From Eledone cirrhosa (taxonomy: Eukaryota), in the NCBI GenBank assembly GCA_964016885.1, contig OZ024758.1, forward strand, positions 26,474,001-26,538,000: a stretch of DNA of 64,000 bases, given 5' to 3'. A program made the position numbers and the translations under genes. This document shows, one piece after another, positions 3,982-63,636 of the stretch. The notes below the pieces were generated by a model. It did no database searches, was not told the origin of the DNA, and worked only from the letters and a program-made list of their open reading frames with translations. Numbering within the stretch: the first letter of the stretch is position 1; each line of letters starts with the position of its first letter.

Positions 3982-4057
3982 ATCCCACCATAACCAATCA
4001 GTTATACATGTTTATAACTGATTTAGAGCACTCAACAGACTGGAGTAAAAATTCAAT

Positions 4058-4400
4058 GATATTAAATAAATGGAAACTATAGTTATAAAACCATATTTAT
4101 TTTATTATATATATTTCAAGGGTACCAAAAGACTTTGGTATGCTTTCTTCAGATAAAATACAAAATTTGTTTTATAAATAGAGACATACCCAGGAAAGTC
4201 ATACCTTATCAGTTGGATATTCTCTGAATATCTCTCCAGAGAATATCCAACTGATAAGGTATGATTTTCTTGGGTATGTCTCTATTTATAAAACAAATTT
4301 TGTATTTTATCTCAAGAAAGCGTACCAAAGTCCTTGAAGTATATATAATAAAATAAATATGGTTTTATAAATATAGTTTCCATTTATTTAATATCATTAT
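4058..4400. repeat. Fold-back inverted repeat (~170-bp arms)
   Basis: Arms centred near 4231 (..GGATATTCTCTG / CAGAGAATATCC..), with a few substitutions and a small deletion in the right arm. Confidence 0.9.
4098..4160 (-). ncRNA. Minimal type I hammerhead ribozyme motif
   Basis: tattttat-CTGAAGA-aagcataccaaagtcttttggtaccctt-GAAA-tatata-TA-ataaaata, with a perfect 8-bp stem I. Confidence 0.75.
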
Positions 4401-4918: not shown

Positions 4919-4950
<32 letters not shown>

Positions 4951-4951
<1 letters not shown>

Positions 4952-5145
4952 ACAAAGGAAAAGTGGTAAGGAACCAGGTGGACCATAACGCACCAAAGTA
5001 CTCAATACTTAGGGTAGTAGAGTGGGTAATAGGAACGAGTAGGACCCCGACGGCTGAGCTCAAGCCGTTTCGACGGCTAATTCTGAATTAATTCAGAATT
5101 AGCCGTCGAAACGGTTTGAGCTCAGCCGCCGGAGTCCTACTCGTT

Positions 5146-5150
<5 letters not shown>
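4951..5150. mobile_element. Short interspersed TA-flanked repeat with terminal fold-back (further copies 9480-9620, 10358-10515, 10530-10647, 14030-14183, 15026-15120)
   Basis: Shared GTGGTAAGGAACCAG.TGGACCATAACGCACCA.AGTACTCAATA..GACCCCGACGGC.GAGCTCAAGCCGTTTCGACGGCTA. Palindromic end at 5032-5148. Probably PLE-tail derived. Confidence 0.65.
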
Positions 5151-8104: not shown

Positions 8105-9248
8105 CAAAAAGAGATCGATATATAATATAACGATCATGCGGTTCTATGACCGTTCAACTGAAGCTAAAAATCCAACACCTCGGAGCGCTTGCACACTGCC
8201 AATATCATAGGAGAGCCCCCCTCCCACACACACACACACATACACATATATATATGCATACAGATACATATAGGCATACATTATATAATATGCACACCCT
8301 TTCCATTCTGAGTTCAAATCCCGTCGAGGTTAACTTTGCCTTTCATCCTTACGGGGTCGATAAAATAAAGTACCAGTAATGCACTGGATAATTGCTGGCC
8401 TTGTGCGCACACAACACACACATATATAAACAATTATATATCATGCACACACACACACGCACACATATATAGAAACATCCATACATATACATGCATTCAT
8501 GCATACACACACAAACACGCACGAAATCTATGTGTATATGCATGCATTGCTTGTATTAAGATAGCAAGTGGTTGTTAGCAGGTGGCCGAGAAAACTATTT
8601 GTTACTAAGATTTTTTTTCTTTTATTATTATATTTAAGTGTCGTATAATATATATATCAAGGGCGGTGCCCCAGCATGGCCTCAGCCGGATGGCTGGTAA
8701 AAGTAAAAGAATATACATTTATATACGCATGAACACAGAAATTATTATGGCAGTGATTGTGAAAGTGTATGTCTGTTGTTTAAATGTACACATGTTTTAG
8801 AATCTGTATGATGCACGTAAAAAAAAAAAATTTTTAAAAAAAGTAAATGTATATACCATATCTCCAATGTTTTAAAACATTATGTGAACACACGTACATA
8901 TATACACACGTACATTGAGGTGGACGGGGTCATATCAGACCCACCAAAGATTGTACTGTTTGTTGTGCGGGAGCTCGTTGCCTATATATCAGTGGGTGGC
9001 CCCGAGTAGCTCTGGTGTCGCGGTGAAAGGGGCTAAAACACCTACAGTTACTTCACCGCCTGACAAGATATCGGTTCAAGCATTTCGGATTCGGAGTACA
9101 GCTGCACCCTCAACTCAGATATGTGTCTACCAAGCGTACACACACATAATTATATGTATATATATATATGTATGTATATATATATGTATATATATATATA
9201 TATATATACGATATTAACAAATGGAAACTATATTTATAAAACCATATT

Positions 9249-9313
9249 TATTTCATTATACATATTTCAAGGACACCAAGTTAAATTATGGTGTGCTTTC
9301 ATCAGACAAAATA
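9249..9313 (-). ncRNA. Minimal type I hammerhead ribozyme motif
   Basis: tattttgt-CTGATGA-aagcacacc..ggtgtcctt-GAAA-tatgta-TA-atgaaata. Confidence 0.7.
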
Positions 9314-9620
9314 TAATATAGATCAGTTTTATAAATAAATATTGACATACCCTTAAAAAATGCAACCATTACTGTTGGAAGCTCCCGGATAGTGGAGTTG
9401 TTTACTTATATTATTATTAGTAGTGGATATTTTTATTTTTTAAATAAGCCGTTGGGTTAGATATATATATATATATAATCAGTCAGGACCCCGACGGCTG
9501 AGCTCTTGCCGTTTCAACAGCTAAGTTCCTGATTCATTCTTATAACCATACTCTACTACTCCAAGTATTGAGTACTCTGGTAAACCTACAGTAACTGGAC
9601 GTTACAATTCTTCTCTATCG

Positions 9621-9664
<44 letters not shown>

Positions 9665-9756
9665 CAAAGATTAGTATGGTTCGTTGATTATTCAACGAAT
9701 ACAGTTTTACAATAGATTAGAAGCACTCGACAGTAAAAGTTTTCCTGGAGTTTTTA

Positions 9757-10045
9757 ATATTATTCGAAATGTTAACAAATGAAAAATATTCGCATAATCA
9801 AAATATATACTTTATTATATATATTTCAAAGGTAGTGTGTTGTTTTTTCAGTACGTCCTCATCAGACAAAATACTGTACGTCCTCATCACACTGCCAATA
9901 CTGGAATTGTATAATCAAGATCGTAGCGGTATGTCGTATATCAAATCATATATTTTGTCTGATGAGGACCTACTGAAAAAACAACACAGTACCTTTGAAA
10001 TATATATTTTGATTATGCGAATATTTTTCATTTGTTAACATTTCG

Positions 10046-10050
<5 letters not shown>
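9757..10050. repeat. Fold-back inverted repeat (~100-bp arms, ~75-bp spacer)
   Basis: TATTATTCGAAATGTTAACAAATG... is mirrored at 9951-10050. Confidence 0.85.
9808..9873 (-). ncRNA. Minimal type I hammerhead ribozyme motif (partner at 9951-10008 has lost the stem I 3' strand)
   Basis: tattttgt-CTGATGA-ggacgtactg..cactaccttt-GAAA-tatata-TA-ataaagta. Confidence 0.65.
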
Positions 10051-10113
<63 letters not shown>

Positions 10114-10163
10114 GATATTAAACGATATTAAATAAATGGAAACTATATTTATAAAACCATATT

Positions 10164-10229
10164 TATTTCATTATATATATTTCAGGGATATCATATTAAA
10201 AATATGGTATGCCTTCTTCAGACAAAATA
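10164..10229 (-). ncRNA. Minimal type I hammerhead ribozyme motif
   Basis: tattttgt-CTGAAGA-aggcataccatatt..aatatgatatccct-GAAA-tatata-TA-atgaaata. Confidence 0.7.
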
Positions 10230-10711
10230 CAATATAAACAGTCTTATAAATAGATAGATTTGACATACCTTTCAACTTCAACTTCCATTTAAAAAGTTGA
10301 TTTGGTAGTGAAAAAATATATATTCCTCCGTTTTATATATATATATATATATATATATAACGAAGGAATTGTGGTAAGGAACCAGATGGACCATAACGCA
10401 CCAGAGTACTCAATAATTAGGGTAGTAATAGGAAAAAGAATGACCCCGACGGCTATTTCCAGAAATAGCCGTCGAAACGGCTTGAGCTCTGCCGTCGGGG
10501 TCATACTTTTTCCTATATATATATATATAACAAAGAAAGTGTGGTAAGAAACTAGGTTGACCATAACGCACCAGTGTACTCGATACGTTCGGATCTAGCT
10601 GTCGAAACGACCGGAGCTCAGCCGTCGGGGTCCTGATTCTTTTCCTATATATATATATATATATATATACAATATTAAATAAATGGAAAACTATATTTAT
10701 AAAACCATATT

Positions 10712-10777
10712 TATTTCATTATATATATTTCGGGGATATCATATTAACAATATGCTATGCCTTCATCAGACAAAATA
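10712..10777 (-). ncRNA. Minimal type I hammerhead motif, left arm of perfect fold-back
   Basis: Exact reverse complement of 10933-10998. Confidence 0.72.
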
Positions 10778-10932
10778 CAATATAAACAGTTTTATAGATA
10801 AATATATTCGACATACCGTAATAAACATCAACTTCATTTGAAGAGGTTTACTGCTAGCGTAAACCTCTTCAAATGAAGTTGATGTTTATTACGGTATGTC
10901 GAATATATTTATCTATAAAACTGTTTATATTG

Positions 10933-10998
10933 TATTTTGTCTGATGAAGGCATAGCATATTGTTAATATGATATCCCCGAAATATATATAATGAAATA
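10933..10998 (+). ncRNA. Minimal type I hammerhead motif, right arm of perfect fold-back
   Basis: tattttgt-CTGATGA-aggcatagcatatt..aatatgatatcccc-GAAA-tatata-TA-atgaaata. Confidence 0.72.
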
Positions 10999-11126
10999 AA
11001 TATGGTTTTATAAATATAGTTTTCCATTTATTTAATATTGTAAATATACTCCAAATATTTGTCGAGTGCTTTTATATCAGTTATAAATATTTACTAGTTG
11101 TAACCCAACAATTTTAAATATAACTT

Positions 11127-11169
<43 letters not shown>

Positions 11170-11218: not shown

Positions 11219-11287
11219 GGAAAAAATGAAACGAAATTTCATTTCCCACTCTTAGTACGGCTGTTACTTAAATATCAGTATGTATAC

Positions 11288-11775
11288 GTACATACATATA
11301 TGTATACAGACGTACAGTAGTATGTATATATATATATACATACATGCACACACATGTATATATGTACGTATGGATTCACCGAACATTTATTATAATGCTC
11401 GGTGTGTTTGTAAACAAACATCCCGTATTAAGCCGTAGTGTCGATATGCAAATTGGGCTACTCGGCCGTTAATATGCATAAGGTCAGTATATACGTTCAA
11501 CAATCTGGCAGGAAGGTATACGTTGCTGACGATAGCTAATAAGCTTGAAACTAGTATAGCGTTCCTTTGTCAGTGTTGAACAAACGAGCAGCGATGGTTG
11601 CTGGACACTGTACGGCTTAATACGGGATGTTTGTTTACAAACACACCGAGCATTATAATAAATGTTCGGTGAATCCATACGTACATATATATATGTGTGC
11701 ATGCATGTATGTATGTATGTATGTATGTATGTATGTACATACTACTGTACGTCTGTATACATATATGTATGTACG
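11288..11775. repeat. Inverted repeat flanking a unique ~170-bp spacer
   Basis: TATGTACGTATGGATTCACCGAAC...TTAAGCCGTA is mirrored at about 11610-11690, and the microsatellite-like flanks are also mirrored. Confidence 0.85.
11520..11562 (+). ncRNA. Compact type I hammerhead motif
   Basis: acgttg-CTGACGA-tagctaataagctt-GAAA-ctag-TA-tagcgt. Stem II is agct/agct and stem III is the palindrome ACTAGT. Confidence 0.65.
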
Positions 11776-11783
11776 TGTACATA

Positions 11784-11822
<39 letters not shown>

Positions 11823-14012: not shown

Positions 14013-14985
14013 GAGAGAGAGAGAGTGAGATTTCTGGACGCGGCGTCCAGAAATAGCCGTCAAAAAAGCTTGAGCTCTGCCGTCGGGGTCATACTTTTTC
14101 CTATTACCCACTCTACTACCCTAAGTATTGAGTACTCTGGTGCGTTATGGTCCATTTGGTTCCTTACCACAATTCCTTCGTTATATATATATATATGAGT
14201 CGAGCAACCAAATCACCCCCTACTGTCTTAAATAAGGAAATGACAGTAAATAATTGTTTCTACTTAAGGCACAAGGCCAGCAATTTATTCAGTGCATTAC
14301 TGGTACTTTGCCTTTCATCCTTACGGGGTCGATAAAATAAAGTTAACCACGGAGGGATTTGAACTCAGAATGACATTAGATAATGTAGTCGTAGACATGT
14401 CCCTAAAAGTGTTGATGGTCATGGTTGGAATGCCTTTAACCATAGTTAAGTTTAATTAGTGTTGACCTAGGAGAGATAAACAACAGTGTGATAGAGATAG
14501 AAGATATGTGTAATTATTTATGGGTTTTGCTCCCTGAAACCGGAAAAATCATTTGCGTGTGGCGTGGATAATTTCATGTTTTAAGTATAGAATATATATA
14601 TATGTATATATGTATATATGTATATATGTATATATTGCCAAAGACGAAATATTCACTTCCACCAACGGAGAATCGAAACCGAGTCGTAGATTTTAAATAC
14701 CTACACCACTGCATTGCATCTATACCTAAGAGAGCACATACATATTTGTGTTTATGAAACAAAACAAGTAAGCCAGATATTGTAGACACACGCTGGCATT
14801 CTAAATTATAACTCTAAAGTTCTCTGAAATAGTTCCCCCCCATAACATATAAGATACAGCAGGGATAGAGGTTTTTAATGATATAAGGACGAGCAATTTT
14901 GTCACGTATACCTTGTATTATATAAAAATACTATCGTTATATATTTTTCTAGGCACCGCCACACACAGTGCTCTCTGTACAGAAG

Positions 14986-15028
<43 letters not shown>

Positions 15029-15149
15029 AACAAGTATGACTCCGACGGCAGAGCTCAAGCCGTATTGAGTACTTTGGTGCGTTATGGTCCATCTGGTTCT
15101 TTACCACATTTCCTTCGTTATATATATATATAACGGAATATATTAGGGA

Positions 15150-18391: not shown

Positions 18392-18796
18392 TATATAGAA
18401 ATTACATGAATCAAAGTTCTGTTCAAACCATTTATTAGCTTACAATTGTTTCGTCCAAACCGAGGTTTGGAGTCTTCGGAGCAATTTTTCAATGATTGTT
18501 TACATACATGACCTCCTTTCCAACACAAGAGACATACAGAAACATATGTATATATCGATGCACAGTGGGTTGACATCCATTATAATAATACAGCATGGCG
18601 TATTTTAATGGATGTCAACCCACTGTGCATCGATATATACATGTGTTTCTGTATGTCTCTTGTGTTGGAAAGGAGGTCATGTATGTAAACAATCATTGAA
18701 AAATTGCTCCGAAGACTCCAAACCTCGGTTTGGAAGAAACAATTGTAAGCAAATAAATGGTTTGAACAGAACTTTGATTCATGTAATTTCTATATA
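18392..18796. repeat. Fold-back inverted repeat (~190-bp arms, 23-nt spacer)
   Basis: Arms 18392-18582 and 18606-18796, with about 3 mismatches. Confidence 0.93.
18704..18752 (+). ncRNA. Hammerhead-like motif with variant core CCGAAGA (inverted partner at 18436-18484)
   Basis: ttgct-CCGAAGA-ctccaaacc tc ggtttggaa-GAAA-caattg-TA-agcaa, with palindromic stem III ACAATTGT. Confidence 0.55.
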
Positions 18797-24678: not shown

Positions 24679-24740
24679 GTATATAGTGAAGGCACATGGC
24701 TTAGTGGTTAGAGCATATATTTATATACATACATACATAT

Positions 24741-26366
24741 GGAGGCACATGGCTTAGTGGTTAGAGCATTGGCCTTGCAATAGAAAGGTTGTGAGTTCAA
24801 TTCTCAGACCGGGTGATGTGTTGTGTCCTTGAGCAAGACACTTTATTTCACATTGCTCCAGTTTACTCAGCTGTAGAAATGAGATGATAGGGACTGGGGT
24901 CCCTATCATTCCACTGGAAAGTGGTCGTGGAGGTGCCACGGTTAAAAAGCACCCAGCACTCACTGTAAATGAGGTTGGTGTTAGGAAGGGCATCCAGCTG
25001 TAGAAATCAAGCCAGAATCAGTTCCCGTCCCACCCTTGCAAGCAGGGAAAAGCAGACGTAAAATGAAATAATGATGATGATATATATATCATCATCATCA
25101 TCATCATCATTTTACGTCCGCTTTTCCCTGCTTGCAAGGAAATATATGAGAAGGATTGAGTGCTGTGTGGTTGCACATGGGTTACATATGAATAAAATTA
25201 GTCCTTCATCAGTGATTTTCCAACCTTCATTGGTATTTCATCACTTCAAAAATCATATACCTCCAGTTGGTGCGAGAAATAGCTAAATAAAGCTATTGGG
25301 ACAAGTAATATAGCGTAAAGCGAGCGAGACAAGTAAACAAACAAAGATGGTATAGCAACGGAAAGGTAGGAAGAAACAAGCACATGATATCTATTCAGCT
25401 TAAGCTGGGTGAATTTCATGGGCGAGAGATATATACAGACCATCCGACATGGGTGAGGTGTGAGTGAGAAAGTACCCCACACAGGCCAAACGGGAGGAAG
25501 TGAGAGGGGGAGAAGCAGAGAGTGAGTGAGTGGAAGTGCGAGGAAGAGGCCAGTCGAGAGAAAGTGTGACTGACAGAGGGGACGAAAGAAGGTGAGAGAT
25601 ACAGAGAGAGGGGGCAAGTAGTAAGAAAGAAACAGACAAATGCATCACTCACACCTCACCATTGTTCGATGGTCTGTATATATCTCTCTCGCCCATGAAA
25701 TTCACCCAGCTTAAGCTGAATAGATATCATGTGCTTGTTTCTTCCTACCTTTCCGTTGCTATACCATCTTTGTTTGTTTACTTGTCTCGCTCGCTTTACG
25801 CTATATTACTTGTCCCAATAGCTTTATTTAGCTATTTCTCGCACCAACTGGAGGTATATGATTTTTGAAGTGATGAAATACCAATGAAGGTTGGAAAATC
25901 ACTGATGAAGGACTAATTTTATTCATATGTAACCCATGTGCAACCACACAGCACTCAATCCTTCTCATATATTTCCTTGCAAGCAGGGAAAAGCGGACGT
26001 AAAATGATGATGATGATGATATATATATCATCATCATTATTTCATTTTACGTCTGCTTTTCCCTGCTTGCAAGGGTGGGACGGGAACTGATTCTGGCTTG
26101 ATTTCTACAGCTGGATGCCCTTCCTAACACCAACCTCATTTACAGTGAGTGCTGGGTGCTTTTTAACCGTGGCATCTCCACGACCACTTTCCAGTGGAAT
26201 GATAGGGACCCCAGTCCCTATCATCTCATTTCTACAGCTGAGTAAACTGGAGCAATGTGAAATAAAGTGTCTTGCTCAAGGACACAACACATCACCCGGT
26301 CTGAGAATTGAACTCACAACCTTTCTATTGCAAGGCCATGCTCTAACCACTAAGCCATGTGCCTCC
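24741..26366. repeat. Large inverted duplication (~725-bp arms, 177-bp spacer) including a SINE
   Basis: Arms 24741-25467 and 25645-26366 are near-identical. Paired ORFs 25071+/26037- confirm this. Confidence 0.93.
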
Positions 26367-26852
26367 ATTATATGTATGTATATATATATATTGGTAAACG
26401 GAAAAGAAAATGCTGACAAATTGTTCACAGTTGAAAAATGGTTTAATTAGGAATAAAAGAGTATTAGTGATTGTATGGGTTAGTATTCAGTTGTGGTTTT
26501 AAGTTTTTACCGGTTGCGCATTTCTAAATGCTTTTCAAAAATAATTTTGAGATAGAGTGTCCGTGCTGTTTGCTCTGATCTGATTAGTTTTGGGAATTCT
26601 ACCTGTTTTTATGTTAAAAAAGTGGCTCCAGCGTTATTTTTGTGTTGCTAAAATGCTTGTGGTCAAAACAATTTTGATTGGTCGGTAAAGGTCATGTGAA
26701 TGTAAAAAGTTGATTTTGCGCCAAGACTGTTTTTATGTTAAAAAAGTGGCTCCAGCAAAAATTCTTGGTCAAAACAATTTTGATTGGCCGGTAGAGGTCA
26801 TGTGGATAAAAAATTGGATTTGCGCCAAGATTGAGAAATGACTCTTTCACAA

Positions 26853-27526: not shown

Positions 27527-27975
27527 TTAGGGAGAAGTGTTTAGACGGGGTCCGTATTTGTTAATGAAGTAAGATTCCTTGCTGATGCGCTGGGTGTGGG
27601 TGGCATTATCTTTAAATTTGTAGAGGGGAAAGATTCTGAAGTTGGGATGATTTTGGGCGGCACAGGTATCAATGTGTTCACTCAGTGGTATTTTCCTGTA
27701 TTCCCGTATTTTAATTTGGGATCTATGGACAGTCATGCGTTGGCGGAGGCTGTTTTTGGTCTGGCCTATGTATTGTTCTCGACAACCTGAACAAGTTAAT
27801 ACATATATTAGATTTTCCGATGCACATGTGAAATTGTGTTTTACTATAAAACGTTGTCCATCTTTGAAATAGAATTCTGAACCCTCTATTAGGTTGATGC
27901 AAATGCCACAGTTGGGTCTATCGCATTTTTTTACTGTGGGTTTCGTTGTTGTGGTTGGCAGTACTTTGGCATATA
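27527..27975 (-). pseudogene. Penelope-like element GIY-YIG endonuclease remnant
   Basis: [47 protein letters not shown]...LN is a GIY-YIG domain with the Cys-rich linker typical of PLEs. 5' truncated at a microsatellite. Confidence 0.88.
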
Positions 27976-28052
27976 TACATATAACGGTGATGATGATGAT
28001 GATGATGATATACATACATACATATATACATACATACATATATACATACATG

Positions 28053-28543: not shown

Positions 28544-30239
28544 TGATATTTAAACCTTCAGCATATAAATCGGCCATTCTCTCATCTCTTTCTATTCAAA
28601 CTGGCCATAACTGGCCGCTCATACTGATGTTAAGGTATTGTTCTCAAAATGAACAATATCAAAATCTCGTAAATTCGATATTATGTGTGATAAAGCCTTT
28701 ACTGCAGAAATACAATAGTAAATATAGAGTAATGTAAATGCTAAAGGGTTAAACATTCATAGAATTTATCCAAGTTTATAGGAAACATTCATTACTTCCT
28801 TGGTACTTTAATTTGAAATTAGAACAGCAAAATTACGAACAAAAGTATTCCTACCAAAACCATCCTATCTTTTCATATATCAAGTTTGTCCTATGTGGGT
28901 TGTTTAAGACAGTAATTGTGGTTGACATAAGGCGCATGGCTTAGTGGTTAGAGCATTGAGCTTGCAATCGAAAGGTTGTGAGTTCAATACTTGGACCAGG
29001 TGATGTGTTGTTTCCTTGAGCAAGACACTTTATTCCACATTGCTCCAGTTTACTCAGCTGTAGAAATGAGATGATAGGGACTAGGGTCCCTATCGTTCCA
29101 CTGTAAAGTGGACATGTAGGCACCATGGCAAAAAAAGCACCCAGCACTCACTGTAAATGAGGTTGGTGTTAGGAAGAGCATCCTGCTGTAGAAATCAAGC
29201 CAGAATCAGTTCCCGTATGAGCAAGACAAGGTCAGCCAACCGGACACTGCCCACAACAGGACAACCCGTCTAACCCATGCTAGCGCAGAAGAACGGACAT
29301 AAAACGGTGATGATGATGATGATGATCCAGCTGTAGAAACCAAGCGTAAATCAACTCCGGGTGAGCAAAACGCGGTCCTCTTATCTGATTCTCTCCCAAA
29401 GGGTTAGCCCATCCTACCCATGCTAGCGTGGAAAATGGACTTTGAACGATGATAATGATGATGATGATGATGATGATAGTAGGGTATGATTTGAGATTTG
29501 GCTGCTATGTTTAGTAGGTCAAGTGACAATGTAGAAGAGCTCTCTCATTTGTTAATTAGGGTTGATGTTGAGCTAAATAACAATAACTAATGGAACACAG
29601 GAAACTGAACTCGTGATTATTGTTCCTATTTAGTTAAAGTATTATGAAATTTTTTAATAATACATTCCTTGCAGACAACCAAAAGTTATGTTATTATAAT
29701 TCTCTTGGTGGTGGGTTGGCAGCAATCGGTAAAGGGTCGGACAGCATGCTTTGGCTTCAAATCCCGCCAAGGTTAGCTTTGCCTTTCATCCTACGGGGTT
29801 GATAAAGTAAAATACCAGTAATACACTGGGGTGGATTTAATAGACTTTCCCTTCTCCCCAAATTGCTGGCCTTGTGCCTAAAGTAGAAATTATTGTTATT
29901 CATTCAAGGGCGGTGGATTGGCAGTATCGGTAGAGGGTCTGACGCCATGCTCTACATGTCGGACTACAGCAGATTTCTTCCAGAGGAAATTAGAAAGAGA
30001 TATAGAGGAAGAATCCACCCCAGTACTTGACTGGTACTTTTTTTTATCGACCACGAAAGGTTAAAAGGCAAAGTTGACCTCGGCGGGATTTGAACTCAGA
30101 GAGCAGAAACGAATACCATAAAGTGTTCTAACGGCTCTGCCAATTTGCCACCCAGTAGAAGGAAGACGCAGTAGAGGTAGACCACGAAAAACATGGCCGG
30201 AGGTGGTGAGAGCAGACCTCATCATCATCATCATCATCA

Positions 30240-33940: not shown

Positions 33941-35960
33941 ATGGCTAATTCACCTCTGCACGAAGCAGCTGAAAGCCTTTCTCACAAATTAACACCTCAC
34001 ACCGACACCACCATTGTAAATGTTACTACGTTTGCCAACACAAAAAAATATATAAGCACTAGCAATATTTTAAATTTGTCTCAGGCAGACATTCATTTCC
34101 CGCCATTACCAATGACTGCAGGTGTTAAAGCCTCCACCACCACCACCACCGCGACAACCACCACCCCACCACCACCGCGACAACCACCACCCCACCACCA
34201 CCGCGACAACAGAAACAAAAGAAGAAAAAAATAAATTAACTCGTGATGTCGAAATGAAATCAAGCAAAATGGACTCTTCCCCACCAAAGACGACTGACGT
34301 CACCACCACCACAACTGAAACTAAAATTAATATTAACGATAGCAACAACAACAATGACATTATAACCCCCCCCCCCTCAGTTTCGCCAGAGTAGCAAAAC
34401 AATTCGAAGCATTTACCGTAACTCAGGAAGATTTAGAAAATGCCAAACAAATGGTAAAGAAAGATGGGTACAGGGTCAGCCCCCCACCCCCACCCCACCC
34501 CACCTAATAAAATGGAGCATGGGCGCCTATGCACCGTGTTGTATAGAACAATAAATGTAAAATCGCGCCGAGTGGAACGGGCATCCGAGTCCCAAATCCA
34601 AAAAGCTTTGGGACATGTGTGGGCAAGAAAAACCCACATCAGACGTGGGCAAAAGTATGGAACCGTGGACGTGTTCTTTGAAACACCAGAGGAGGCTAGA
34701 GAACACTCCATGGCCCCATTAAAAAGTGACGACTTCACACTCGTCCCAAGCTATTGTGGCCAGAGACTCGTAAAGATCAGGGTGACCCACGTTCCACCGG
34801 CCATCGAAATTCCCTGGCTAATAGCGGCCGTCCTCGCCGGCATCGAAGCCAACACGAAAATAATAGCAATAGCAAAAGAAAAGCAGGAAAACTGGTCCGG
34901 ATCTGGGATGGAGCTCCTGATCCAAGCGGACCAAAAAAGCATTGAGGAGATCCCAGAGGTAATAGACCTCACTGACGGCAGCCACCTCACGGTAATTGTC
35001 GAGGGCAGAAAACCTAGGTGTGTCGTTTGTGGTGAAGGAACCCACCTAAGGGCTTTCTGCCCTCAGGCTAAAAGGTTGAGGCCACCTCTCCTACCCACCC
35101 CAGTGACACAACCATCAACACCACCAGTAGCAGAGATGGCAGCAACAACTGTAGCAGCAACAACAGAAGCAACTATAACAGCAACAACCCAGCAACAGTA
35201 GCAAAACCAACACCACCACCACCAGCAGCAAAACCAACACCACCACCACCCAACGCTTCAGAACTAGCACCAGCGCCTACACCATCCACCACGCCACAAC
35301 CAAAACTAACGGCTGTGGAGGATTTTCCACTCCCCGGCCTATCACAACTGGAGACAGATTGTGACGACGAGGAGTGGGAAACGATATCCGGAAAAAAAAA
35401 AAAAAGAAACCAAAAAAGAAAAAATTCTCTTCCTTCCCCCTCCAAAAACAAAATACAGAGGGAAACAAATAAATTAAGAAACAAAAAAGTTAGGACAGAT
35501 ATGCCACCATCCACACCAGCATCACCAACCCCATCAACCCAAACACCAACACCATCACCATCATTAACCCCAACACCACCATCACCTACACCACAAAAGT
35601 CACCAAAATGCGAAACAGAAACAAACCCACAACAAACGCAAACAAAACAAAACAACCAAAACGATACACACTACACAGCATTAAATTTGAACAACAAGCA
35701 ATTATTACACTACATCCAACACAACACCAGCATCACAGAAAAAGACTACACAACAACCCCAAAATTCACACCACCTCCACACATATAAATCACTCGCACC
35801 ACACAGAAAACGTACATGACACTAAAACAAAAATTCCCCAAAGACATCGGAGACTTCCGACAAGCACTCTCCAGGAGGATTTATAAGGACATCCTTCCTG
35901 AGGAGGCCACAAGCAGTGAAAAGGATGGAAAAACCGTCCTTCCCCTACGAGAAGTAAGGT
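33941..35960 (+). pseudogene. Frameshifted ORF1 (gag-like) of the Tx1-like LINE
   Basis: ATG at 33941. Fragments 33887-34234, 34122-34394, 34464-35201 and 35315-35788 lie in different frames. CCHC knuckle CVVCGEGTHLRAFC and Pro/Thr-rich linkers. Confidence 0.8.
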
Positions 35961-35996
35961 AAGTGGTCTTTCCCATCTTTTCCACTCCTTTTCAAC

Positions 35997-38900
35997 ATGA
36001 CCTCACTCAGAATAGGCAGCATAAATGCGCGTGGTTTGGGGTCGTCATGGAAGCAGGGCCACCTGCTCAACGACCTCAGGTCACTAAACATAGATGTAGT
36101 GGCCATCAGCGAGACCAGAATCTCCGAAGCACAGGCTTTCGCACCGATCTTCGGCGGCTACGATGTGTACGCATCTCCCAGCCGTCCGGGATCGGGGGGA
36201 GGAGTTGCTGTGCTTTTTCGGAGAGGTTTGGATCTTGCCATACTGGCCATCTTCCTGGACCCAGAAGGTAAGTTGGTGGTGCTGGACGTGACCAGCGGAG
36301 ATGGGAAAGCTTTCAGGTTAGTGGCCGTCTATGCCCCGACAGGAGCAGGGCGGCCTGATTTCTTCCGGCGTCTGGAGACCTTTCTTGGAACGTCCCGCTC
36401 TTTAGTGTTAGTGGGCGACTGGAACGGGATCTTAGATGCACGCTGGGATTGTGTGGGATTAGTGGATAAGGAAGGAGGGTGCAAGAGTCTCACCAACCTG
36501 CTCAGACGTTTTGAACTGTCTGACAGGTACCGAATGGATTTCCCGAATGTACCAATGTGGACTTGGACAAATCGCATAGGGTCATCCAGATCATATCTAG
36601 ATAGAGTATTTTGTAGGGAAATAGATAGGTCTAGCATAGGCTGTCCACAATTCAAGATAGTCAGCTACACGGACCACAAATTCGTGATCTGTGTGCTTGA
36701 CTTAGATAGGCTTCATAGACAAGGACCCGGCTACTGGAAGCTAAACGCGTCCTTACCAGCGCGCAAGGCCTACAGAGACCGGATTAGCGAACTAGTTAAG
36801 CGGGCGTTGACGGGGGCCATCGTCAACAAGTGGTGGTTTGCTCTGAAAAGAGCAATTAGAATAGAGTCCATTAGGTTTAGTAAGACTTTAGCAATAGAGA
36901 AAAATAGAGCAAAGGGAGAAATAGTTAGAAAATTAGATGAGGCGCTTAGCAAAGGCATCGCGACCGACGTACTTGCGGCGAAATTGGCCCTTGACCAATT
37001 CTTCAATGCAAAGCACGAAGGCTGCGTTGTCAGAGCTAGGGTGCGTGCTCTCAGACACGAGGGGACGAAAGCCGTTCAATGGGCCCGAGTGGCGGAGGCG
37101 CGTCGTGGCAACAAAGCCACGATCCGGTCTTTGGTGGACCACGACGGGCGCATGCTACTCGATCCCGGGCAAATGTGTGAAGCTTTTCAGCGACGCTTCG
37201 CTCAACTGTTCGGGGGCAGTGGCGGGCCGGATCGAGGGATGGACTTTAGTGTCTACCTCGACGGACTGCCGCGGCTTTCGGCCACTGAGGCGGAGTGTTG
37301 CGAAAAGCCGATAACAACCGCTGAAGTACGGGATGCAATGACTAGTTGCACAAGGGGTAAATCGCCTGGTTTGGATGGTCTGCCCTATGAACTTTACGTA
37401 CAAATGCCAAACTTGTTCGGAGGCCTCTTGGCGGACGTCTACTGCAACTGGCAACAGAACGGGAGAATTCCCAGCTCTGTGAGCCGAGGAGCGGTGGCGC
37501 TGCTGAGAAAGGATCCGAACAAGGGGGATAACATAGATAATTTTAGGCCCATAACTCTGCTAAACACAGAGTTCAAGATTTTGGCCAAGGTGCTAGCAAA
37601 GAGGTTGGCGCTTGTCGTTGGTGGTCTGGTGGGAGAGGCACAGACATGCGCCATTCCCGACAGATCCATCCACGACAACCTCCACCTCATGCGATACATC
37701 GTAGAGAGGGTAGCTAGGGAACCTGGCACGGGTGGGTCTTTGATCAATTTAGATCAGTCGAAAGCCTTCGATAGGGTCGACCATCGTTACCTAGCGGCAG
37801 TCCTGAGGGCGGCTGGCTTTGGGCTCGTCTTCAGAGGCTGGATCGCTGCCATGCACAGCGACATCTGCTCTGTAGTGAGAGTGAACGGTCACCTTTCGGA
37901 ACCGTTCAACATCATGCGCTCGGTCCGCCAAGGATGTCCCCTCTCGTCCCTGTTGTACGTATTGACTCTCGAGCCATTACTGCACAAACTGGAGACGTTG
38001 AGGGGGGTCCCGCGCGAACTAGGATGCGGAAGATCCGTGTCAGCATATGCCGACGATGTCACCGTAGTGGTGTCAAACGCCAAACACATCGAGGCGATCG
38101 GCACTACACTAAGAGAATACGAAGCGGTGACAGGAGCAATGATCAACCAGGAAAAGTCAGTGGGCCTGCAGCTCGGCACCTGGAGAGGCAGGTCCATGCC
38201 GTCCAACAGCGTCGTCGGGCGCTGGACGGACGGACCGGTTAAATTGCTAGGGGTCTGGTTCGGTCCAGACCTCCAGACGGACAAAAACTGGGACGAGGTG
38301 ACGAGCAGGGTGGCTTCCCTCACCCAGAAATGGGCCGAGAGGAAGCTATCCCTGAAAGGTCGAGCGGAGGTGGCGAATGCGTACATCGCATCCGTCATCT
38401 ACTACCGCCTGACCGTCGTACCTTGTCCTAAGCCCCGCCTGACTGCGCTGGAGCGTTTGCTCTTTTGCTTCTTGTGGAAGGGACGCGCTCCGATGGTCAG
38501 GCGGTCCATCTGCTGTCAACACCCGCTACGTGGAGGGCTGGGCATGCCGTGGCTGATGATGCGCAGACACGCGCTCAGGCTACGACATCTCCACCTCTTC
38601 CTCGACGGTGATCAGGTGTGGTCGCCGTTTGCGAGACACGTTTTTCCCCAGCTCGTCTCCTTGACGGAGCTGCAGTCCTGGGTCAAGCGAAGACCGAGAG
38701 GGAGCGCTTGGAGACTGGAATGTCTTCAGGCGCTCACAGCCCTCGACCAATCGGACAATGTGATCGGTGGAAACTCCACCTTGGCGTTCTATAGGGGATT
38801 AGTGTAGGGGAAGAGCGACGACGTACTTGGAGAAACTCTAGGCGTCGACGAAAATCAACTAGCCAATCTCTTCGGAAGGACTTTCGGGCCGGGGCCTATG

Positions 38901-39413
38901 GACAACTTCCAGAAATCCCTGGCCTGGCAGTGCTACCGAGGAGCTTTGCCAGTTCGGGATAAACTCTACAGGCATGGAGGTGCCGTCAGCCGGGCATGTC
39001 CGAGATGCGCGCAGGGCGACGAAACCGTCCTGCACGCACTCGTCCAGTGTCCGAGCATTGCTGACTTGTGGGTTTATGTCGAACACCTGCTGTCACGTGT
39101 AGGACGGATCCAGCTATCAGCTGAGTCCATCGTGAGGATTGCCCCGCCCCCTTCCTTTATCCGGGAAGGGCAGCCAGTTTTTATCTGTCTGGTGGCCATG
39201 GCGAAAGAGATAGTATGGTGGACACGTTTGAAAGGGCTGAAGACGAGCACTTACCTCTTCGGTGATGCCCTGATTAACTTTTTCAAATTTCATTTGAAAA
39301 GGAAAATCAGGGTAGAGAGGGAAGTGCTCTCTTCCCAGCATTTTGTTGAAAGATGGGTGAGAGAAGCAAGTATGGCCCGAATGAATGGGCCTTCTCTGAG
39401 TATGTGTCTGTAA
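35997..39413 (+). pseudogene. ORF2 (APE endonuclease + reverse transcriptase + C-terminal CCHC) with one in-frame TAG at 38805-38807
   Basis: APE motifs SINARG, SET, GDWN, SYLDR, TDH. RT motifs KSPGLDG, FRPITLLN, DQSKAFDRV, RQGCPLS, YADD. ORF 38898-39413 is in the same frame and carries CPRC..ETVLHALVQC. Confidence 0.95.
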
Positions 39414-43283: not shown

Positions 43284-43570
43284 ATAAACTAAAATAAATA
43301 AGTCAAATGTTTAAAATTTGACTTCGTTTATATATTTCGGTGCTATATATATTTCGGTGACAGCCATCTTTGGCTGTGACCTCTTCAGGAACTGGGCATA
43401 TCAGAGTATTGACAAAGTTAAACACCTCAACAACATGTGTAATCGTCTCTACCACACTAATTCGGACTGCCTGAAGAGGTCACAGCCAAAGATGGCTGTC
43501 ACCGAAATATATATAGCAGTAATAAACGAAGCCAAATTTTAAACATTTAACTTATTTATTTTAGTTTATT
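43284..43570. repeat. Fold-back inverted repeat (~100-bp arms, ~80-bp spacer)
   Basis: ATAAACTAAAATAAATAAG..CTCTTCAGG is mirrored at 43470-43570. Confidence 0.88.
43466..43520 (+). ncRNA. Minimal type I hammerhead motif (inverted partner core at 43344-43388)
   Basis: actgc-CTGAAGA-ggtcacagcca aaga tggctgtcacc-GAAA-tatata-TA-gcagt. Confidence 0.8.
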
Positions 43571-43964: not shown

Positions 43965-44522
43965 TTAATGTGGAGAGCCATCCTCAGCATTCTCGTGTAG
44001 CACCCATCAACCATCTGAGTGAGTTTCTTGGTCAGTGTCCAAGTCTCAGACCCATACAGCAGCACAGACTCCACTACAGCAATGAAGAGGCGGATTTTCA
44101 GGTCTCTATGAAGGTCCGACTTCCACACCGATCACAAGCTGTGGCACGCCGCCCAGGCCTTGCTCTTCCTCTCAACCACATCATCTTCCATATTCCCAAT
44201 CTTTGCTCCCAAATATAGGAAGTCCTGAGAAAAACTCAGCTGTATGGGAGCATCCCAAAAGTCAGCTCAAAAGTGACAAAGAGGAGACTGAGGTTGGCTG
44301 GACATGCTCGCCGACATCCAGAGTTGACGTTGCACTCAATGCTCCTTTGGGAGCCCCTACATGGACACACTAGAAGAGGAAGACCAAGGTTAACGTATGT
44401 TGATGCCCTAAGGACAGACACTGGTCTGTTGGAGACGCAGGACATGGCAGCGATAATGAGGGACAGAGATCGCTGGAGAGAACTCGTCCATGGATCTCGG
44501 GAATTTTACCCGCCTTAGATAG
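43965..44522. mobile_element. Second RTE-like LINE 3' fragment with 5' inversion
   Basis: The minus piece YLGA...SVLLYGSETW...RMLRMALHI and the plus piece EVLRKTQLYG...RRLRLAGH...GRPR...RDRWR are consecutive parts of one RT C-terminus. Confidence 0.8.
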
Positions 44523-45600
44523 ATATATATATATATATATAATACAAAATTTAGTACAGCATCAACGAAGCCATGGTTGCAGCCAAGCTAACGAATGCAG
44601 TTTCGGTGTGCAGCTAAGCACTCAATAGGGTATAACCCTAGAGTTATAACATTACGTTTAGACAGCTTTGCAAAATGAAGACAGCGACCGATAGAAGGGC
44701 CACAGTGACCATAGCCACGAAAAAGACTGAACTCAGGAAAAATTTGACTAACCTGGACCATCACGTCGACATCATACATAACACATAATACATTTAATAT
44801 AATATATACCATATAATATACATCACATGTAATCCACAATATCTCCACTAGGTTTCTGTAAATCCGAAATCAACAAAATCCACTTGCAAGGGTGTGCAAG
44901 TTAATGGTTTTTGAAGATAGAACAATGGAGTTTTACTTCGTCAACAAGTTTTTCGTTCTGGTCTGCTCGGGTTTTTTATGCTAGAGTAAGCGCTGCTAGC
45001 AAACACATGGTTTTCCCAAAAGGAAGTAACACCCAATTTTGGCGGTCAATTCAAAATTTAGAACAAAGAGAAATAATAATTGTTTCTACTTTTGGCACAA
45101 GGCCAGCAATTCACCAGTACATTACTGGTACCTTATTTTATCGACCCTGTAAGGATGAAAAGTAAAGTTGACCTCGGCGGGATTTGAACTCAGAATGGCA
45201 AGGGCCGTAACTCTATACGTCAAAGCATGGCGTCTTACCCCCTACCGATACTGCCAATCCACCGCCCTATATTAAATATTCTAACTCAATATTAAATAAT
45301 ATACCCAATTTCTATATTCTAGACCTCTAATATTTGTAATATTAGTACATACACCTCAATTTATTTATTTTTTTTTTTTAGGCTTTATTTACAGCTGTTT
45401 TTCATTTTTGACAGCATTCCTGATCAAAAGTCTCTTTCTCTTTCCGCCTTTCTTTCTTTTTTCCTCTCTCCTCTCTTCTATTTCTTTTTCCTTTCCTTTT
45501 CTTCATTTTTCCTATTTTTCTCTTCTCTTATATTTTTGTCATATGTAGACTGGACACTTTTTTGTTCACAAGTGTTTTTAGGCCTCATATCATGTTACCT

Positions 45601-45865: not shown

Positions 45866-49529
<3,664 letters not shown>

Positions 49530-49588
49530 TAATATATATAATATGGTTTTATAAATATAGTTTTCCATTTATTAATATCATTGATATA

Positions 49589-50877
49589 CGAGGAAGGATC
49601 AAAAAGTTCGCGGAATTTTATCGTAGCAAGAAAAAAATCAGGTTAAAACAATATTAAACATGTCAGAACGTTGTCACTGGGTGTTTACCTTGCTATTAGT
49701 CACATGCAGTCAGTCATGCGCGGACTATTGTACAGTACTGACACTCTTGAAAAAACCTCTTTTTGGAGCAATGGAAAATAGTTATTTTGAGATAAGATCG
49801 AATATCAAGTTTCTGGTGAAACTCAAATGGAAAGGAACACAGATTATGGAGGCTTTAGTTAAAGTTTACAGTACTACTGCTCCAAAGAAAACTGCTGTCT
49901 ACAAATGGATTCAGTGATTCAAACAAGGGAAAGACGACCTTGAAGACGACCATCGCAGTGGAAGACCAGGAACATCAAACAATGACCAAAACGTTGAGGC
50001 TGCTCAGACTTTAATTGAAGAAGATCGAAGAATAACAGTTAATCAGTTAGCTAAGTCCCTAGACATTTCATATGGTTCGGCAAATTCAATTCTGCACGAT
50101 AATTTGGGACTAAGCAAGCTTTCAGCGCGATGGGTCCCAAAAGCGTTGCGCTCTGATCAGCTGATTCTTCCAAGTGATCTGTCTTTGGCGATATTAAACA
50201 AAATTGAAGTTGATGAAGAGCATTTCCTGACCAGAATCATCACCGGAGATGAAACCTGGATCTACCAGTATAATCCTGAATCCAAACAGCAGTCAAAACA
50301 GTGGCTTCCACATGGATCATCGGGGCCAATCAAGTTCAAATTAAGAAGTGATGGCCACCATTTTCTGGGATTCAGATGGGGTGATACTAATAGATTATCT
50401 TGAAGGTCAAAGAACTGTGACAGGAGCTTACTATGCAAAGGTTTTAGGGAAGCTGAAAGAGGCATTAGTCAAGAAATGAAAAGGGAAACTTCATGGTGGG
50501 ATCTTGTTTGACAATGCACCAGCACATTCTGCGTGGGTTGCAAAAGAAGTTCTTCGAGAATTTCGATGGGAAGTGCTTCCTCACCCGCCTTATAGTCCAG
50601 ATTTAGCCCCATCAGACTTTTTCCTCTTTCCAAAACAAAAAGAAATGCTAAAAGGAACCCGTTTTAGTGGTGTTGAAGAAGCTAAAAACACTGCCAACAC
50701 ATAGCTTCGAACAAGGCCTTCAACTTTCTTTAGAGACGGCTTACGAAGCTGGAAGCATCGCCTTGTCAAGTGGATTGACCTGGATGGCAACTATGTAGAA
50801 AAATAAATCGAAGGTAAATCATATTTTTTGAAAAATAGATTATTTTCTTTAAAATTCTGCGAACTTTTTGATCCCCC

Positions 50878-50881
<4 letters not shown>
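49589..50881 (+). mobile_element. Decayed mariner (DD34D) transposon
   Basis: About 30-bp TIRs (CGAGGAAGGATCAAAAAGTTCGCGGAATTT / AAATTCTGCGAACTTTTTGATCCCCCCTCA) with TA flanks. Transposase fragments from ATG 49771 carry WVPKAL, TGDETW, DNAPAH and YSPDLAPSDF, with stops and frameshifts. Confidence 0.93.
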
Positions 50882-50932
<51 letters not shown>

Positions 50933-51159
50933 TTGATATAGTAGAATAATCGAGAATCGGAAAAACAGCTCACGAATTAACGATAAACAGTATCCGATAT
51001 GTGTGGCAGAGGGCTCAATAATTTGGATAAATCAGAGCTATAACCATCGTTAAATTACCAACACATAGAGATCATGCCTAAAATCACCCGTGCATCCGAA
51101 AAAGAACGACCAGGAAGATTCGGGTCACTCAAATAAAATATCAATAAATCAATAAATTG

Positions 51160-51190
<31 letters not shown>

Positions 51191-57196: not shown

Positions 57197-57304
57197 CTAG
57201 AAAATTATATAAACACATTTTTTGTCAATATATATCGGGTTTTAATTCAAATATATATATATTTAAATAACAACACAAGCACTTTAAGCCTTTAGCATTT
57301 ACAT

Positions 57305-59100
57305 CACGAATGATCAGAAAAAGGAGGCCTGGAAATGTCATAATGAGAGACTGATGAATGTGGAGAATGAATGGGAGAGAGAGAAATTACCCTCAGTAGA
57401 TCTGACAGAGGGACCAGCTATTGAGATTGACGAATATAGGGTCCAAGAGGCGATTAAGGAAATGAAAAATGGTAAGGCTGCTGGACCATCGGGAATAGTT
57501 GCTGAGATGCTGAAGGCATCAGGGGACGTAGGCACTAAACTGGCTGCACGCATCATCAATCAGGCTATATATGGTGGTGTCATACCCAAAGACTGGTGCA
57601 GCAGTATTCTCATAAATTGCTACAAAGGTAAAGGGGATGCTCTGGATAGGAGCAATTATAGGGGTATAAAACTGATAGATCAGGTTATGAAAGTGGCAGA
57701 AAGGATATTAGCACAACTAATTAGAGAAAGGGTCAAACTAGATGAGATGCAGTTTGGTTTTGTGCCTGGGAAGAGTACAACAGATGCCCTCTTCTTGGTG
57801 AGACAATTGCAAGAGAGGTTCTTAGAGAAAAATAAGCCACTATACTTAGCCTTTGTTGACCTAGAGAAGGTCTTTGATAGGGTACCTCGATCTGTCATCT
57901 GGTGGTCCCTAAGGAAACTAGGTGTTGAGGAATGGCTTGTGAGGACAGTGCAAACTTTGTACAGAGGTACTGTCAGTAAAGTCAGGGTAGGAATGGAGTT
58001 TAGTGAGGAATTCCAGATACAAGTAGGAGTACATCAAGGTTCGGTCCTCAGCCCGCTCTTGCTCATTATAGTCCTCCAAGCCATAACAGAGGAGTTTAAG
58101 ACTGGCTGTCCATGGGAACTTCTCTATGCTGACGATCTGGTTCTTATAGCAGAATCAGTAGAGGAGCTAGAAAATAAATTCTGGCTATGGAAACAGCAGT
58201 TGGAAGCAAGAGGACTGAGAATGAATCTAGCTAAGACAAAAGTGTTGATGAGTAGAAAAGAGGACAAAACCCTGATTCCGTCAGGGAAATGGCCATGTTC
58301 GATATGCAGAAAAGGAACTGGCATAAATTCTATAAAATGCACACAATGCAGATCCTGGGTACACAAGAGATGTAGCGGGATAGCAGGCAAACTAACAGGT
58401 AGGGAGAAATATGTATGCAGTACAGGGAAATTAGACAGTAGAAGTCGCATTGATAGACACATTTTTCAAATGCAGGCGGGTGCTATAGAAGTGGTAGATA
58501 GCTTCCGGTACCTAGGAGATCAGATTAGCATGGGAGGGGGGGGGGGTCCGAGGCCATAGTATCGAGAATAAGGACGGGTTGGAAGAAGTTTAGGGAGCTG
58601 CTGACGAAGGGTTTCTCCCTGCGTATGAAAGGCCAGTTATATGATGCCTGCGTGAGGAGCGCGATGCTGCATGGTAGTGAGACATTTGCAGCAACTGCAG
58701 ATGATAAGCAACGGCTGGAGGGAAATGAGGCAAGCATGCTCCGTTGGATGTGCAGTGTCAATGTGCGTGAACGACCCAGCATAAATGTGTTGAGAGAGAA
58801 ACTGTGTCTGAGAGGGATAGAATGTAGTGTACGGGAGGGGAGACTGAGGTGGTATGGACATGTGAAGCGCATGGGGATGACCGATGGGTAAAGAAGTGTC
58901 AGGAAATGCCAGTTGAAGGAAGACGTGGTAGAAGTAGACCACGAAAAACATGGGCGGAGGTGGTGAGAACAGACCTCAGATCATTGAAGCTCACGGTGGA
59001 GATGATGAAGGACCGTGATGAGTGAAGAGACGCTGTGCTGAATAAGACCCGTCCCACCCTTGCGAGCAGGGAAGAGCGGGCGTAAAATGATGATGATGAT
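57305..59100 (+). mobile_element. 5'-truncated RTE-clade LINE in an MRPL18 intron (antisense to the gene)
   Basis: RT motifs GKAAGPSG, NYRGI, QFGF, FVDLEKVFDRV, GVHQGSVLSP, YADD. Cys-rich PHD-like insert CSIC..CTQC..WVHKRC. Frameshift at the poly-G near 58540. RLRWYGHV and a (GAT)n tail. Confidence 0.9.
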
Positions 59101-59756: not shown

Positions 59757-60202
59757 ATTATCTATTTTGAGAACAATACCTTAACCCTTTAATGTTTAAA
59801 CCGGCCAAAACTGGCCAGAATTCTCTACCTCTTTCTGTTGAAACTGGCTGTAACTGGTCACTCAAACTGATGTTAAGGTATTGTTCTCAAAATAAATACT
59901 TTCAAAATCTCACAGATTCGACATTATGTGAGGTAAAGCCTTTACCATGAATATATAAGATAATGTGAATGCTAAAGGGTTAACATCAGTACAAGTGACT
60001 AGTTACAGCCGGTTTGAACAGAAAGTGAGAGAATTCTGGCTGGATATGGCCGGTTTACATGCTAAAGGGTTAAACTTACCACTTTCTGTAGCAACAACAG
60101 AAATTACTTTCTCACTTCATATACATGGTATTCATTTTTAAAATGTCCAACTTTCCCAAAATGATGGAATTGACCATTCCTAGTAATTCTTTTTGAGAAA
60201 CT

Positions 60203-62702: not shown

Positions 62703-63636
62703 ATATGTCTATGTATATAAATGTCCTTTGTTTGTGTCTATATTTACCAGTGTAAACCAGTGGGTCGAGTCATGTCCCTTCAGTCAAAACAGTAACTTAG
62801 CAATTTCATAAATACAGATTATCCCTTTAATGTTCAAACCGGCCAAAACCGGCCAGAATTCTCTACCTCTTTCTGTTGAAACTGGCTGTAACTGGTCACT
62901 CAAACTGATGTTAAGGTATTGTTCTCAAAATAAATACTTTCAAAATCTCATAGATTCGATATTATGTGAGATAATTATGCGAGGTAAAGCCTTTACCATG
63001 AAAATATAATAATATATATAGAGTAATGTGAATGCTAAAGGGTTAACCCTTTAACATTTACATTACTCTATATATATTATTATATTTTCATGGTAAATTA
63101 CATAATTATCTCAAATTGTATCGAATCTATGAGATTTTGATATTATTTACTTTGAGAACAATACCTTAACATCAGTATGAGTGGCTAGTTACAGCTAGTA
63201 TGAACAGAAAGAGGCGAGAGAATTCTGGTTAGATGCAGTCAGTTTAAATGCTAAAGGGTTAATAAGATTGGTATCGGATTAAAATACTGGGCTCAATATA
63301 GACTGACTGAAATTCCTTAAAGGTTGTGCCCCAGCATGGCCATAGGCCAATGTCTTAAACCAGAAAAAAATAAAGGATAAAAGAATTATGAACATGAGTA
63401 GACAAAGAAGGATTTCTGATTTAACAAGATATCCATTTAACATATCTAGCAATTTGAAAGAAAAATATTGCTTGTTTTCTCTCTACAATCACCTAATTAG
63501 CTATATCTTAACTTTTTCATCAAGCACTAATTAGTCGTAATTAATTGTTTCTACTTTAGGCACAAGGCCAGCAATTACCCAGTGCATTACTGGTACTTTA
63601 TTTTATCGACCCCGTAAGGATGAAAGGCAAAGTCAA

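Follow-up and report, generated by a model that had tools for sequence, protein, structure and literature searches.

Inverted pLTRs and short extensions are routine in Penelope-like elements (PLEs) (PMC8969392). Craig et al. (2021) describe an inverted, 5'-truncated copy of the pLTR at the 5' end (Fig. 2 legend), a tail at one end, and a bias towards microsatellites; they treat the way in which PLEs form such ends and tails as unsettled and propose an EN-mediated resolution of the tail (PMC8557442). Arkhipova et al. (2013) described palindromes at the inverted junctions, mostly head-to-head, and proposed self-priming (PMC3846280). Cervera and de la Pena (2014) described the min-HHRs of metazoan PLEs, which have a palindromic helix III and cleave poorly in vitro; they noted pairs of min-HHRs on opposite strands, at spacings of about 100-700 bp, and tied dispersed motifs to truncated PLEs (PMC4209133). 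For the Anolis Poseidon PLE, Frangieh et al. (2024) reported that both strands are cut and extended in vitro and that two RT start sites bound the tail (PMC11167929).

The window analyzed here, a stretch of 64,000 nt of Eledone cirrhosa DNA, contains a palindrome at 10668-11130 that was most likely left by the insertion of a PLE, with a layout that is already known and families that were themselves uncharacterised before. The preliminary description had ascribed the palindrome to a PLE-type insertion; truncated pLTR ends in head-to-head arrangement are supported, and such ends have already been described (PMC8557442, PMC3846280, PMC4209133). As in the inverted pLTRs of EN+ PLEs, as given in PMC8557442 and PMC3846280, the focal insert has a head-to-head 5' copy, a junction palindrome, a tail at one end, (TA)n flanks that would fit a microsatellite bias, and a pLTR hammerhead. 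In contrast to those elements, it has no ORF body, its tail measures 87 nt rather than the 30-40 nt given in PMC8557442, and the tail starts with a bulged hairpin that does not appear in the descriptions compared from these two sources. Being a known PLE footprint, the focal structure alone matters little; what is new are the uncharacterised families and two mechanistic hints. The tail hairpin just past the short end and the polarity of arm length go beyond the cited literature, and may already be in print.

Non-LTR retrozymes are likewise short, non-coding, and PLE-related and carry a type I hammerhead, as described in PMC7229834 and bioRxiv 10.64898/2026.07.22.740005. This assignment was rejected, as retrozymes are head-to-tail tandem repeats in the account of PMC7229834, whereas the focal unit is a head-to-head pair.

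Geometry of the focal palindrome and its hammerhead motifs

The two arms of the focal palindrome are 184 nt each and identical at 184/184 positions, and they flank the 7-nt loop TGCTAGC (10852-10858), a 6-nt palindrome plus one extra base (Table 1). The claim of 184-nt arms with 100% identity, a 7-nt loop, divergent hammerhead motifs, and a tail on the right arm only was confirmed in full. Both ends of the unit abut (TA)n, which is consistent with a microsatellite target bias, but the tract masks any target-site duplication. No long ORF was found in the three plus frames of the tail, which were read by hand, and no ORF lies in or beside the focal unit.

Table 1. Features of the focal insert and its flanks, in window positions.
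Feature	Position	Strand	Remark
(TA)12 target tract, left	10646..10669	.	Final TA common to tract and arm
Tail-less arm	10668..10851	-	Terminates at short boundary conserved in family
Left minimal type I hammerhead motif	10712..10777	-	Core at 10769; structural descriptor
Head-to-head junction	10850..10860	+	7-nt spacer native to right arm; closed by 2-nt AC/GT microhomology
Tail-bearing arm	10859..11042	+	Exact inverted repeat
GGTATGT, splice-donor-like motif	10893..10899	+	47 nt ahead of hammerhead core; sequence resemblance
Right minimal type I hammerhead motif	10933..10998	+	Structural descriptor
Parts of right hammerhead	Stem I 10933-10940/10991-10998; core 10941-10947; GAAA 10979-10982	+	Helix III a palindrome; predicted cleavage 3' of 10990
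One-sided tail, 87 nt	11043..11129	+	On right arm only
Bulged hairpin at tail start	11047..11068	+	ACTC / upper stem / TY bulge / GAGT; common to other window families
(AT)n target tract, right	11130..11162	.	Sequence

The cores CTGATGA...GAAA at 10941 (+) and 10769 (-) both match the structural descriptor, which had ten matches in the window, whereas 30 block shuffles gave 0.1 on average. Each focal arm contains the minimal set of type I elements, i.e., the core CUGANGA, GAAA, UH, helices I and II, and a palindromic helix III. Stem I has 8 bp including two G-U pairs, stem II has 8 pairs, and helix III reads ATATATAT; helix III covaries while staying palindromic (ATATATAT, ACAATTGT, and ATGCGCAT). 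None of the Rfam hammerhead models reached the gathering threshold within the window, where only two tRNA-like SINE heads did so. The minimum-energy fold of the focal monomer is not a hammerhead (z -0.56), and a dimer hammerhead was not obtained when the co-folding of two copies was predicted without constraints. The focal motif shares with the min-HHRs, as described in PMC4209133, the type I core, a long helix II, and a palindromic helix III suited to dimer folding. In contrast, focal helix I comprises 8 bp of A-U and G-U pairs, compared with 4-5 bp in the min-HHRs, the focal helix III palindrome spans 8 nt, and stem II of this putative ribozyme lacks a clean G10.1-C11.1 start.

GTATG was present 28-58 nt 5' of the core in 6/9 hammerheads examined, and some tails contain an acceptor-like CCAG; a pLTR intron surrounding the ribozyme is possible, judging from these resemblances. 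A contig joint in sequencing run X1 leads from 10990, the predicted cleavage site, back to 10933, the start of stem I (depth 629). It could represent a 58-nt hammerhead tandem elsewhere in the focal family, and TA microhomology could also account for the joint.

Head-to-head inserts in the window and in sequencing runs

Two directly joined arms were found at 4055, 4950, 9484, 9757, 10358, 10528, 10668, 15024, 18392, and 43283 (n=10), and these inserts fall into five families (A-E), the focal one being family A. By hand classification, all ten are head-to-head with exactly one tail, and there is no tail-to-tail direct join among them. Tail-to-tail neighbours exist and are always separated by a (TA)n tract (e.g., 10053/10114 and 10648/10667); the stretch 9200-11130 is a series of separate inserts with (TA)n between neighbours. 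Single-arm copies are also present at 9205, 10114, 14045, 18201, and 45563, together with two fragments. A tail-only inverted arm hidden beside the single-arm copies was unsupported: fewer than 10 of 500 shuffles reached the observed score in just 1 of 24 comparisons, and the alignment was poor.

The outward-facing layout had been claimed to recur, in different sequence families, at 4058-4400, 9757-10050, 18392-18796, and 43284-43570. All four are true inverted pairs, their arms being identical at 156/162, 101/103, 192/196, and 99/101 aligned positions, respectively, with indels in three. At each of these loci, however, the descriptor accepts one hammerhead and not its partner, and the families are not all different, since 4058-4400 belongs to the focal family (87-88% identity) and 9757-10050 is related to it (83.5%). 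Five further family-A arms of the window share 81-91% identity with the focal arm, and family B shares 83.5%; a profile search of the window with family A returned 13 matches, which represent families A, B, and partly D. Family C consists of six very short (TA)n inserts (4950-5150, 9484-9620, 10358-10516, 10528-10648, 14045-14183, and 15024-15120), five of which are head-to-head. Its copies retain only the 3' half of the hammerhead, with a stable helix III and a GUC site, and their junctions tend to lie in or near stem II.

At the start of the tails lies a bulged hairpin made of RCTC, an upper stem, a TY bulge, and GAGY. This motif had ten matches in the window versus a mean of 0.43 in 100 shuffles, and a stricter form had nine versus 0.07 in 200; as the motif was derived from the window copies themselves, the comparison measures recurrence and not function. 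The upper stem covaries between families, family E has GCTC/GAGC in place of ACTC/GAGT as its lower stem, and the tail-less arm ends 4-9 nt ahead of the hairpin in families A-E. Inserts adjoining (TA)n, with the tail hairpin on the minus strand (44644 and 51038) and no mirrored arm, were also seen at 44520-44830 and 50930-51160; they are possibly tail-only arms of further families.

Contigs or reads from 4 of 23 sequencing runs were aligned to 10815-11130 only, with run X5 contributing just 11 contigs that cover the 3' part. No RNA run was among the 23 listed, which has no bearing on expression. The focal unit belongs, as a single copy, to a 5'-truncated repeat family, which was matched at at least 88% by 3,543 contigs in run X1, a figure that is not a copy number. 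In X1, X4, and X21, depth declines sharply towards the 5' side, a gradient to which subfamily divergence at the 88% cut-off contributes, and the depth on left-arm letters is explicable by contigs that fit two places. The tail end is joined to (TA)n in X1 and X4 contigs. The short boundary of the tail-less arm recurs in single-arm copies that terminate close to 9208, 10114, and 49590 and in X21, which consists of RAD reads from another study under the same species label; 7,954/30,081 aligned X21 reads pass through the short end into (TA)n, a count that indicates presence only, as these reads represent few loci.

In run X4, five contigs run on 5' of 10850 into other, pyrimidine-rich sequence, indicating that 10850 onward is native to the right arm and leaving a 2-nt AC/GT microhomology at the junction. 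This native 5' continuation places an initiator-like TCACT at the focal junction (10845-10852), and both focal arms may end at the 5' end of the RNA, as far as this motif can tell.

Because its arms are 100% identical, and because none of the contigs or reads listed spans the centre at 10852-10858 with both arms, the palindrome could be suspected of being a fold-back chimera of the assembly or the library. Against this, the mirror is local and halts at a biologically conserved family boundary, and the arms of the sister inserts have diverged by substitutions and indels. In addition, one X1 contig and the raw reads of X21, from a separate study (14 reads, two starts), switch strand at an identical base, 10926. 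An assembly chimera is an unlikely source of the focal palindrome, and we consider a fold-back artefact of either kind extremely improbable.

Proposed two-site priming and copy-back

The focal palindrome is probably the product of one PLE insertion, in which two severely 5'-truncated pLTR cDNAs were likely primed from the two nicked (TA)n strands and joined head-to-head. We hold with moderate confidence that these are PLE ends made by two primers. A PLE RT-endonuclease bound to a pLTR-bearing RNA would cut both strands of (TA)n; cDNA synthesis would start from one cut at the distal end of the tail and from the other at a constant position 4-9 nt ahead of the tail hairpin. Each cDNA would stop independently, at the focal locus within 7-9 nt of each other, and the two 3' ends would anneal via microhomology (AC/GT at the focal locus) before fill-in. 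The outward-facing hammerheads would be passengers of the pLTR, and the focal insert itself is most likely functionless. In support of two primers, all ten directly joined inserts are head-to-head with a single tail, the tail-less arm ends 4-9 nt ahead of the tail hairpin in families A-E, and the short boundary also abuts (TA)n in single-arm copies and X21 reads. Priming at two fixed RNA sites would account for a constant short end, for single-arm copies that terminate at one end or the other, for arms without overlap, and for complete palindromes, and it agrees with the cutting and extension of both strands by the Poseidon protein (PMC11167929).

L1 twin priming also uses two target-strand primers and leaves an inverted 5' segment joined by microhomology, but its second priming site is variable and its segments barely overlap. 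The proposed process shares the two primers and the microhomology and differs in that the second site would be fixed and the arms can overlap fully. Poseidon, as described in PMC11167929, has the same two fixed 3' ends bounding the tail, a stem-loop at the start sites, and an AT-rich target. In contrast, the Poseidon tail sits in the start of the ORF, whereas the focal tail shows no ORF and the window's closest PLE protein is of the Neptune type; head-to-head inserts are not explained in the parts of the Poseidon study used here (PMC11167929). No account of PLE twin priming was found in a literature search judged by titles and abstract openings, nor did a search of the same limited scope find work on octopus hammerhead ribozymes that describes such inserts; most subscription papers, Repbase, and supplements lay outside that scope.

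The same PLE origin could also involve copy-back, in which, at a short inverted repeat, the tail-first cDNA folds on itself, primes its own synthesis, or jumps template and is copied back, the new strand is resolved by the endonuclease at the tail boundary, and the arms are eroded by later deletions. The focal locus alone, with its identical arms, tail-arm spacer, and 2-nt microhomology, fits copy-back and two primers equally well. A hairpin closed by AC/GT around the 7-nt loop would yield the focal junction, and the arms within one insert are 95-100% identical at aligned positions, compared with 81-91% between family copies. Self-priming was proposed in PMC3846280 and EN-mediated tail resolution in PMC8557442.

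A genome dense in very short two-arm inserts makes it possible to count spacer polarity and the fixed short end, and thereby to separate two primers from copy-back. The tail-bearing arm is more truncated at 9484, 9757, 10358, 10528, 15024, and 43283, which are the clearly asymmetric inserts (n=6). At 10528 and 15024, the tail-bearing arm starts inside the tail and the two arms share no sequence. A family-A contig of X1 with a joint from 10852 to 11034 likewise has the more truncated tail-bearing arm. The opposite polarity is shown by the focal insert, by 7-9 nt, and possibly by 14045; 4950 is symmetric, and 4055 and 18392 are not classifiable. A two-sided sign test calculated by hand gave p=0.03 for 6 vs 0, p=0.125 for 6 vs 1, and p=0.29 for 6 vs 2, on a small count in which four of the six asymmetric inserts belong to one family. 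Copy-back predicts a spacer on the tail-bearing arm, and the six clear cases are the opposite. Moreover, the non-overlapping arms of two inserts would be impossible under copy-back without later deletion, and single-arm copies likewise terminate at the short boundary. Palindromes are known to erode through central deletion, and the same arm asymmetry could therefore form later. On these small numbers, the arm asymmetry favours priming from both target strands over copy-back, which we regard as a possible but rather doubtful explanation. The inverted copy made by template switching, as put forward in the preliminary description, accordingly fits the focal locus and fits the window less well, given the six asymmetric inserts and the two without arm overlap.

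Apart from priming from both strands and copy-back, the palindrome might be a non-autonomous unit that moves or acts as a whole, either MITE-like or as a selected dsRNA source. Its arms are perfect, and an X1 joint at 10852 (depth 49.9) has the focal centre letters, so this centre may be multicopy. However, junction position and arm length vary between inserts of one family, there is a further strand-switch joint at 10926, and the one-sided tail and single-arm copies are unlike an element with terminal inverted repeats; this reading is very improbable. A MITE or TIR DNA transposon was rejected as a candidate, since one-sided tails, variable centres, and single-arm copies were found in place of a symmetric, uniform unit. 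Equally improbable is a fold-back duplication produced by host DNA repair or replication after the insertion of a single arm. The window does contain inverted duplications without a clear PLE end, such as the one at 24715-26391, which has arms of about 750 nt and a SINE in both. The mirror of the hammerhead-bearing inserts and their relatives, however, halts at the conserved short boundary in all five families and not in flanking DNA.

Probable PLE membership, predicted hairpins and surrounding DNA

The head-to-head inserts are very probably PLE ends. They display a hammerhead in a terminal repeat, an inverted 5'-truncated head-to-head copy, a one-sided tail, 5' truncation, and dispersed copies; membership rests on this architecture, as the partner ORF was not found. 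The end of a Neptune-type ORF at 27527-27982(-) (PF01541, E 2.4e-7) is the sole PLE coding remnant of the window; it is unlinked to family A and has full-length, 750-aa RT+EN relatives at 63-64% identity. The Neptune label follows the clade description in PMC8557442 and not a tree. This piece is a 5'-truncated ORF end with a CxxC linker and a GIY-YIG domain, open to the stop codon, and no hammerhead was found after it. The CxxC-type zinc-finger linker, expected between RT and EN in a Neptune partner protein, is present in the unlinked fragment P0001 and invariant in 11/11 aligned proteins.

Relatives of the Neptune-type protein are encoded by 27 metagenome loci, and the strict descriptor placed a hammerhead 3' of the RT-GIY-YIG ORF in 3/27. 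A looser scan, judged by eye, found one 3' of the ORF in 7/16 loci with an ORF end, three of the seven being one family. The family-A DNA profile showed no homology to the 27 loci (best E 0.87), and the tail hairpin had 0 matches in their 89 kb; stem I of one locus (L005) resembles that of family A without DNA homology. No inverted partners were found beside the Neptune ORFs in the 12 of 27 loci scanned. Exact-pattern scans for the focal family gave 0 matches in metagenome contigs and 0 in viral contigs, and 0/30 candidates in viral contigs were PLE protein relatives.

Both strands of the focal palindrome are predicted to fold as a single 184-bp hairpin (-293 and -296 kcal/mol). The suggestion that this hairpin masks its own ribozyme holds in silico, where the predicted fold of either strand buries the hammerhead. 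In Octopus bimaculoides, an unusually high share of loci is able to form near-perfect dsRNA; the repeat-level analysis of the same study left octopus out, and Penelope is reported there as a heavily edited repeat in lizard (PMC5625713). In an octopod host, inserts of the focal type are a candidate for the high share of near-perfect dsRNA reported for O. bimaculoides in that source. The preliminary description proposed that such a hairpin could feed ADAR or Dicer; ADAR acting on putative hairpin transcripts of these inserts is plausible by analogy. It is rather unlikely, in our judgement, that fixed-site twin priming is set by the conserved hairpin, that most inserts are born as hairpins, and that thousands of them are the main dsRNA source behind extreme A-to-I hyper-editing in the host. 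No literature linking octopus dsRNA to PLE ends was found in a search that had most subscription papers and supplements outside its scope.

The window consists of animal repeat DNA and includes a 200-N gap, SINEs of tRNA origin, L1-like and RTE-like LINEs, and Helitron and mariner-like remnants. Of 29 protein search hits, one, a short 69% match in an Octopus bimaculoides gene model, gave a weak lead to an octopod host, and the SINEs resemble those of octopus. A near-intact L1/Tx1-like LINE occupies 34458-39413, and an RTE-like LINE fragment lies at 57288-59080. Remnants of a Helitron with a PIF1 helicase (47144-49225) and, by eye, of a mariner-like element (49575-50880) were also present. In the inverted duplication at 24715-26391, 738/745 aligned positions are identical between the arms, which are separated by a 177-nt spacer, and a tail-like TTGAGTGC motif points inward. 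Just right of the focal element, at 11269-11793, there are inverted arms of about 170 nt with a 161-nt spacer, in which the descriptor detects no hammerhead. A distinct short repeat, bounded by terminal inverted repeats and MITE-like on visual inspection, occurs at 1320-1540, 28545-28765, 59780-60075, and 62850-63230, with internal tandem expansions in some copies.
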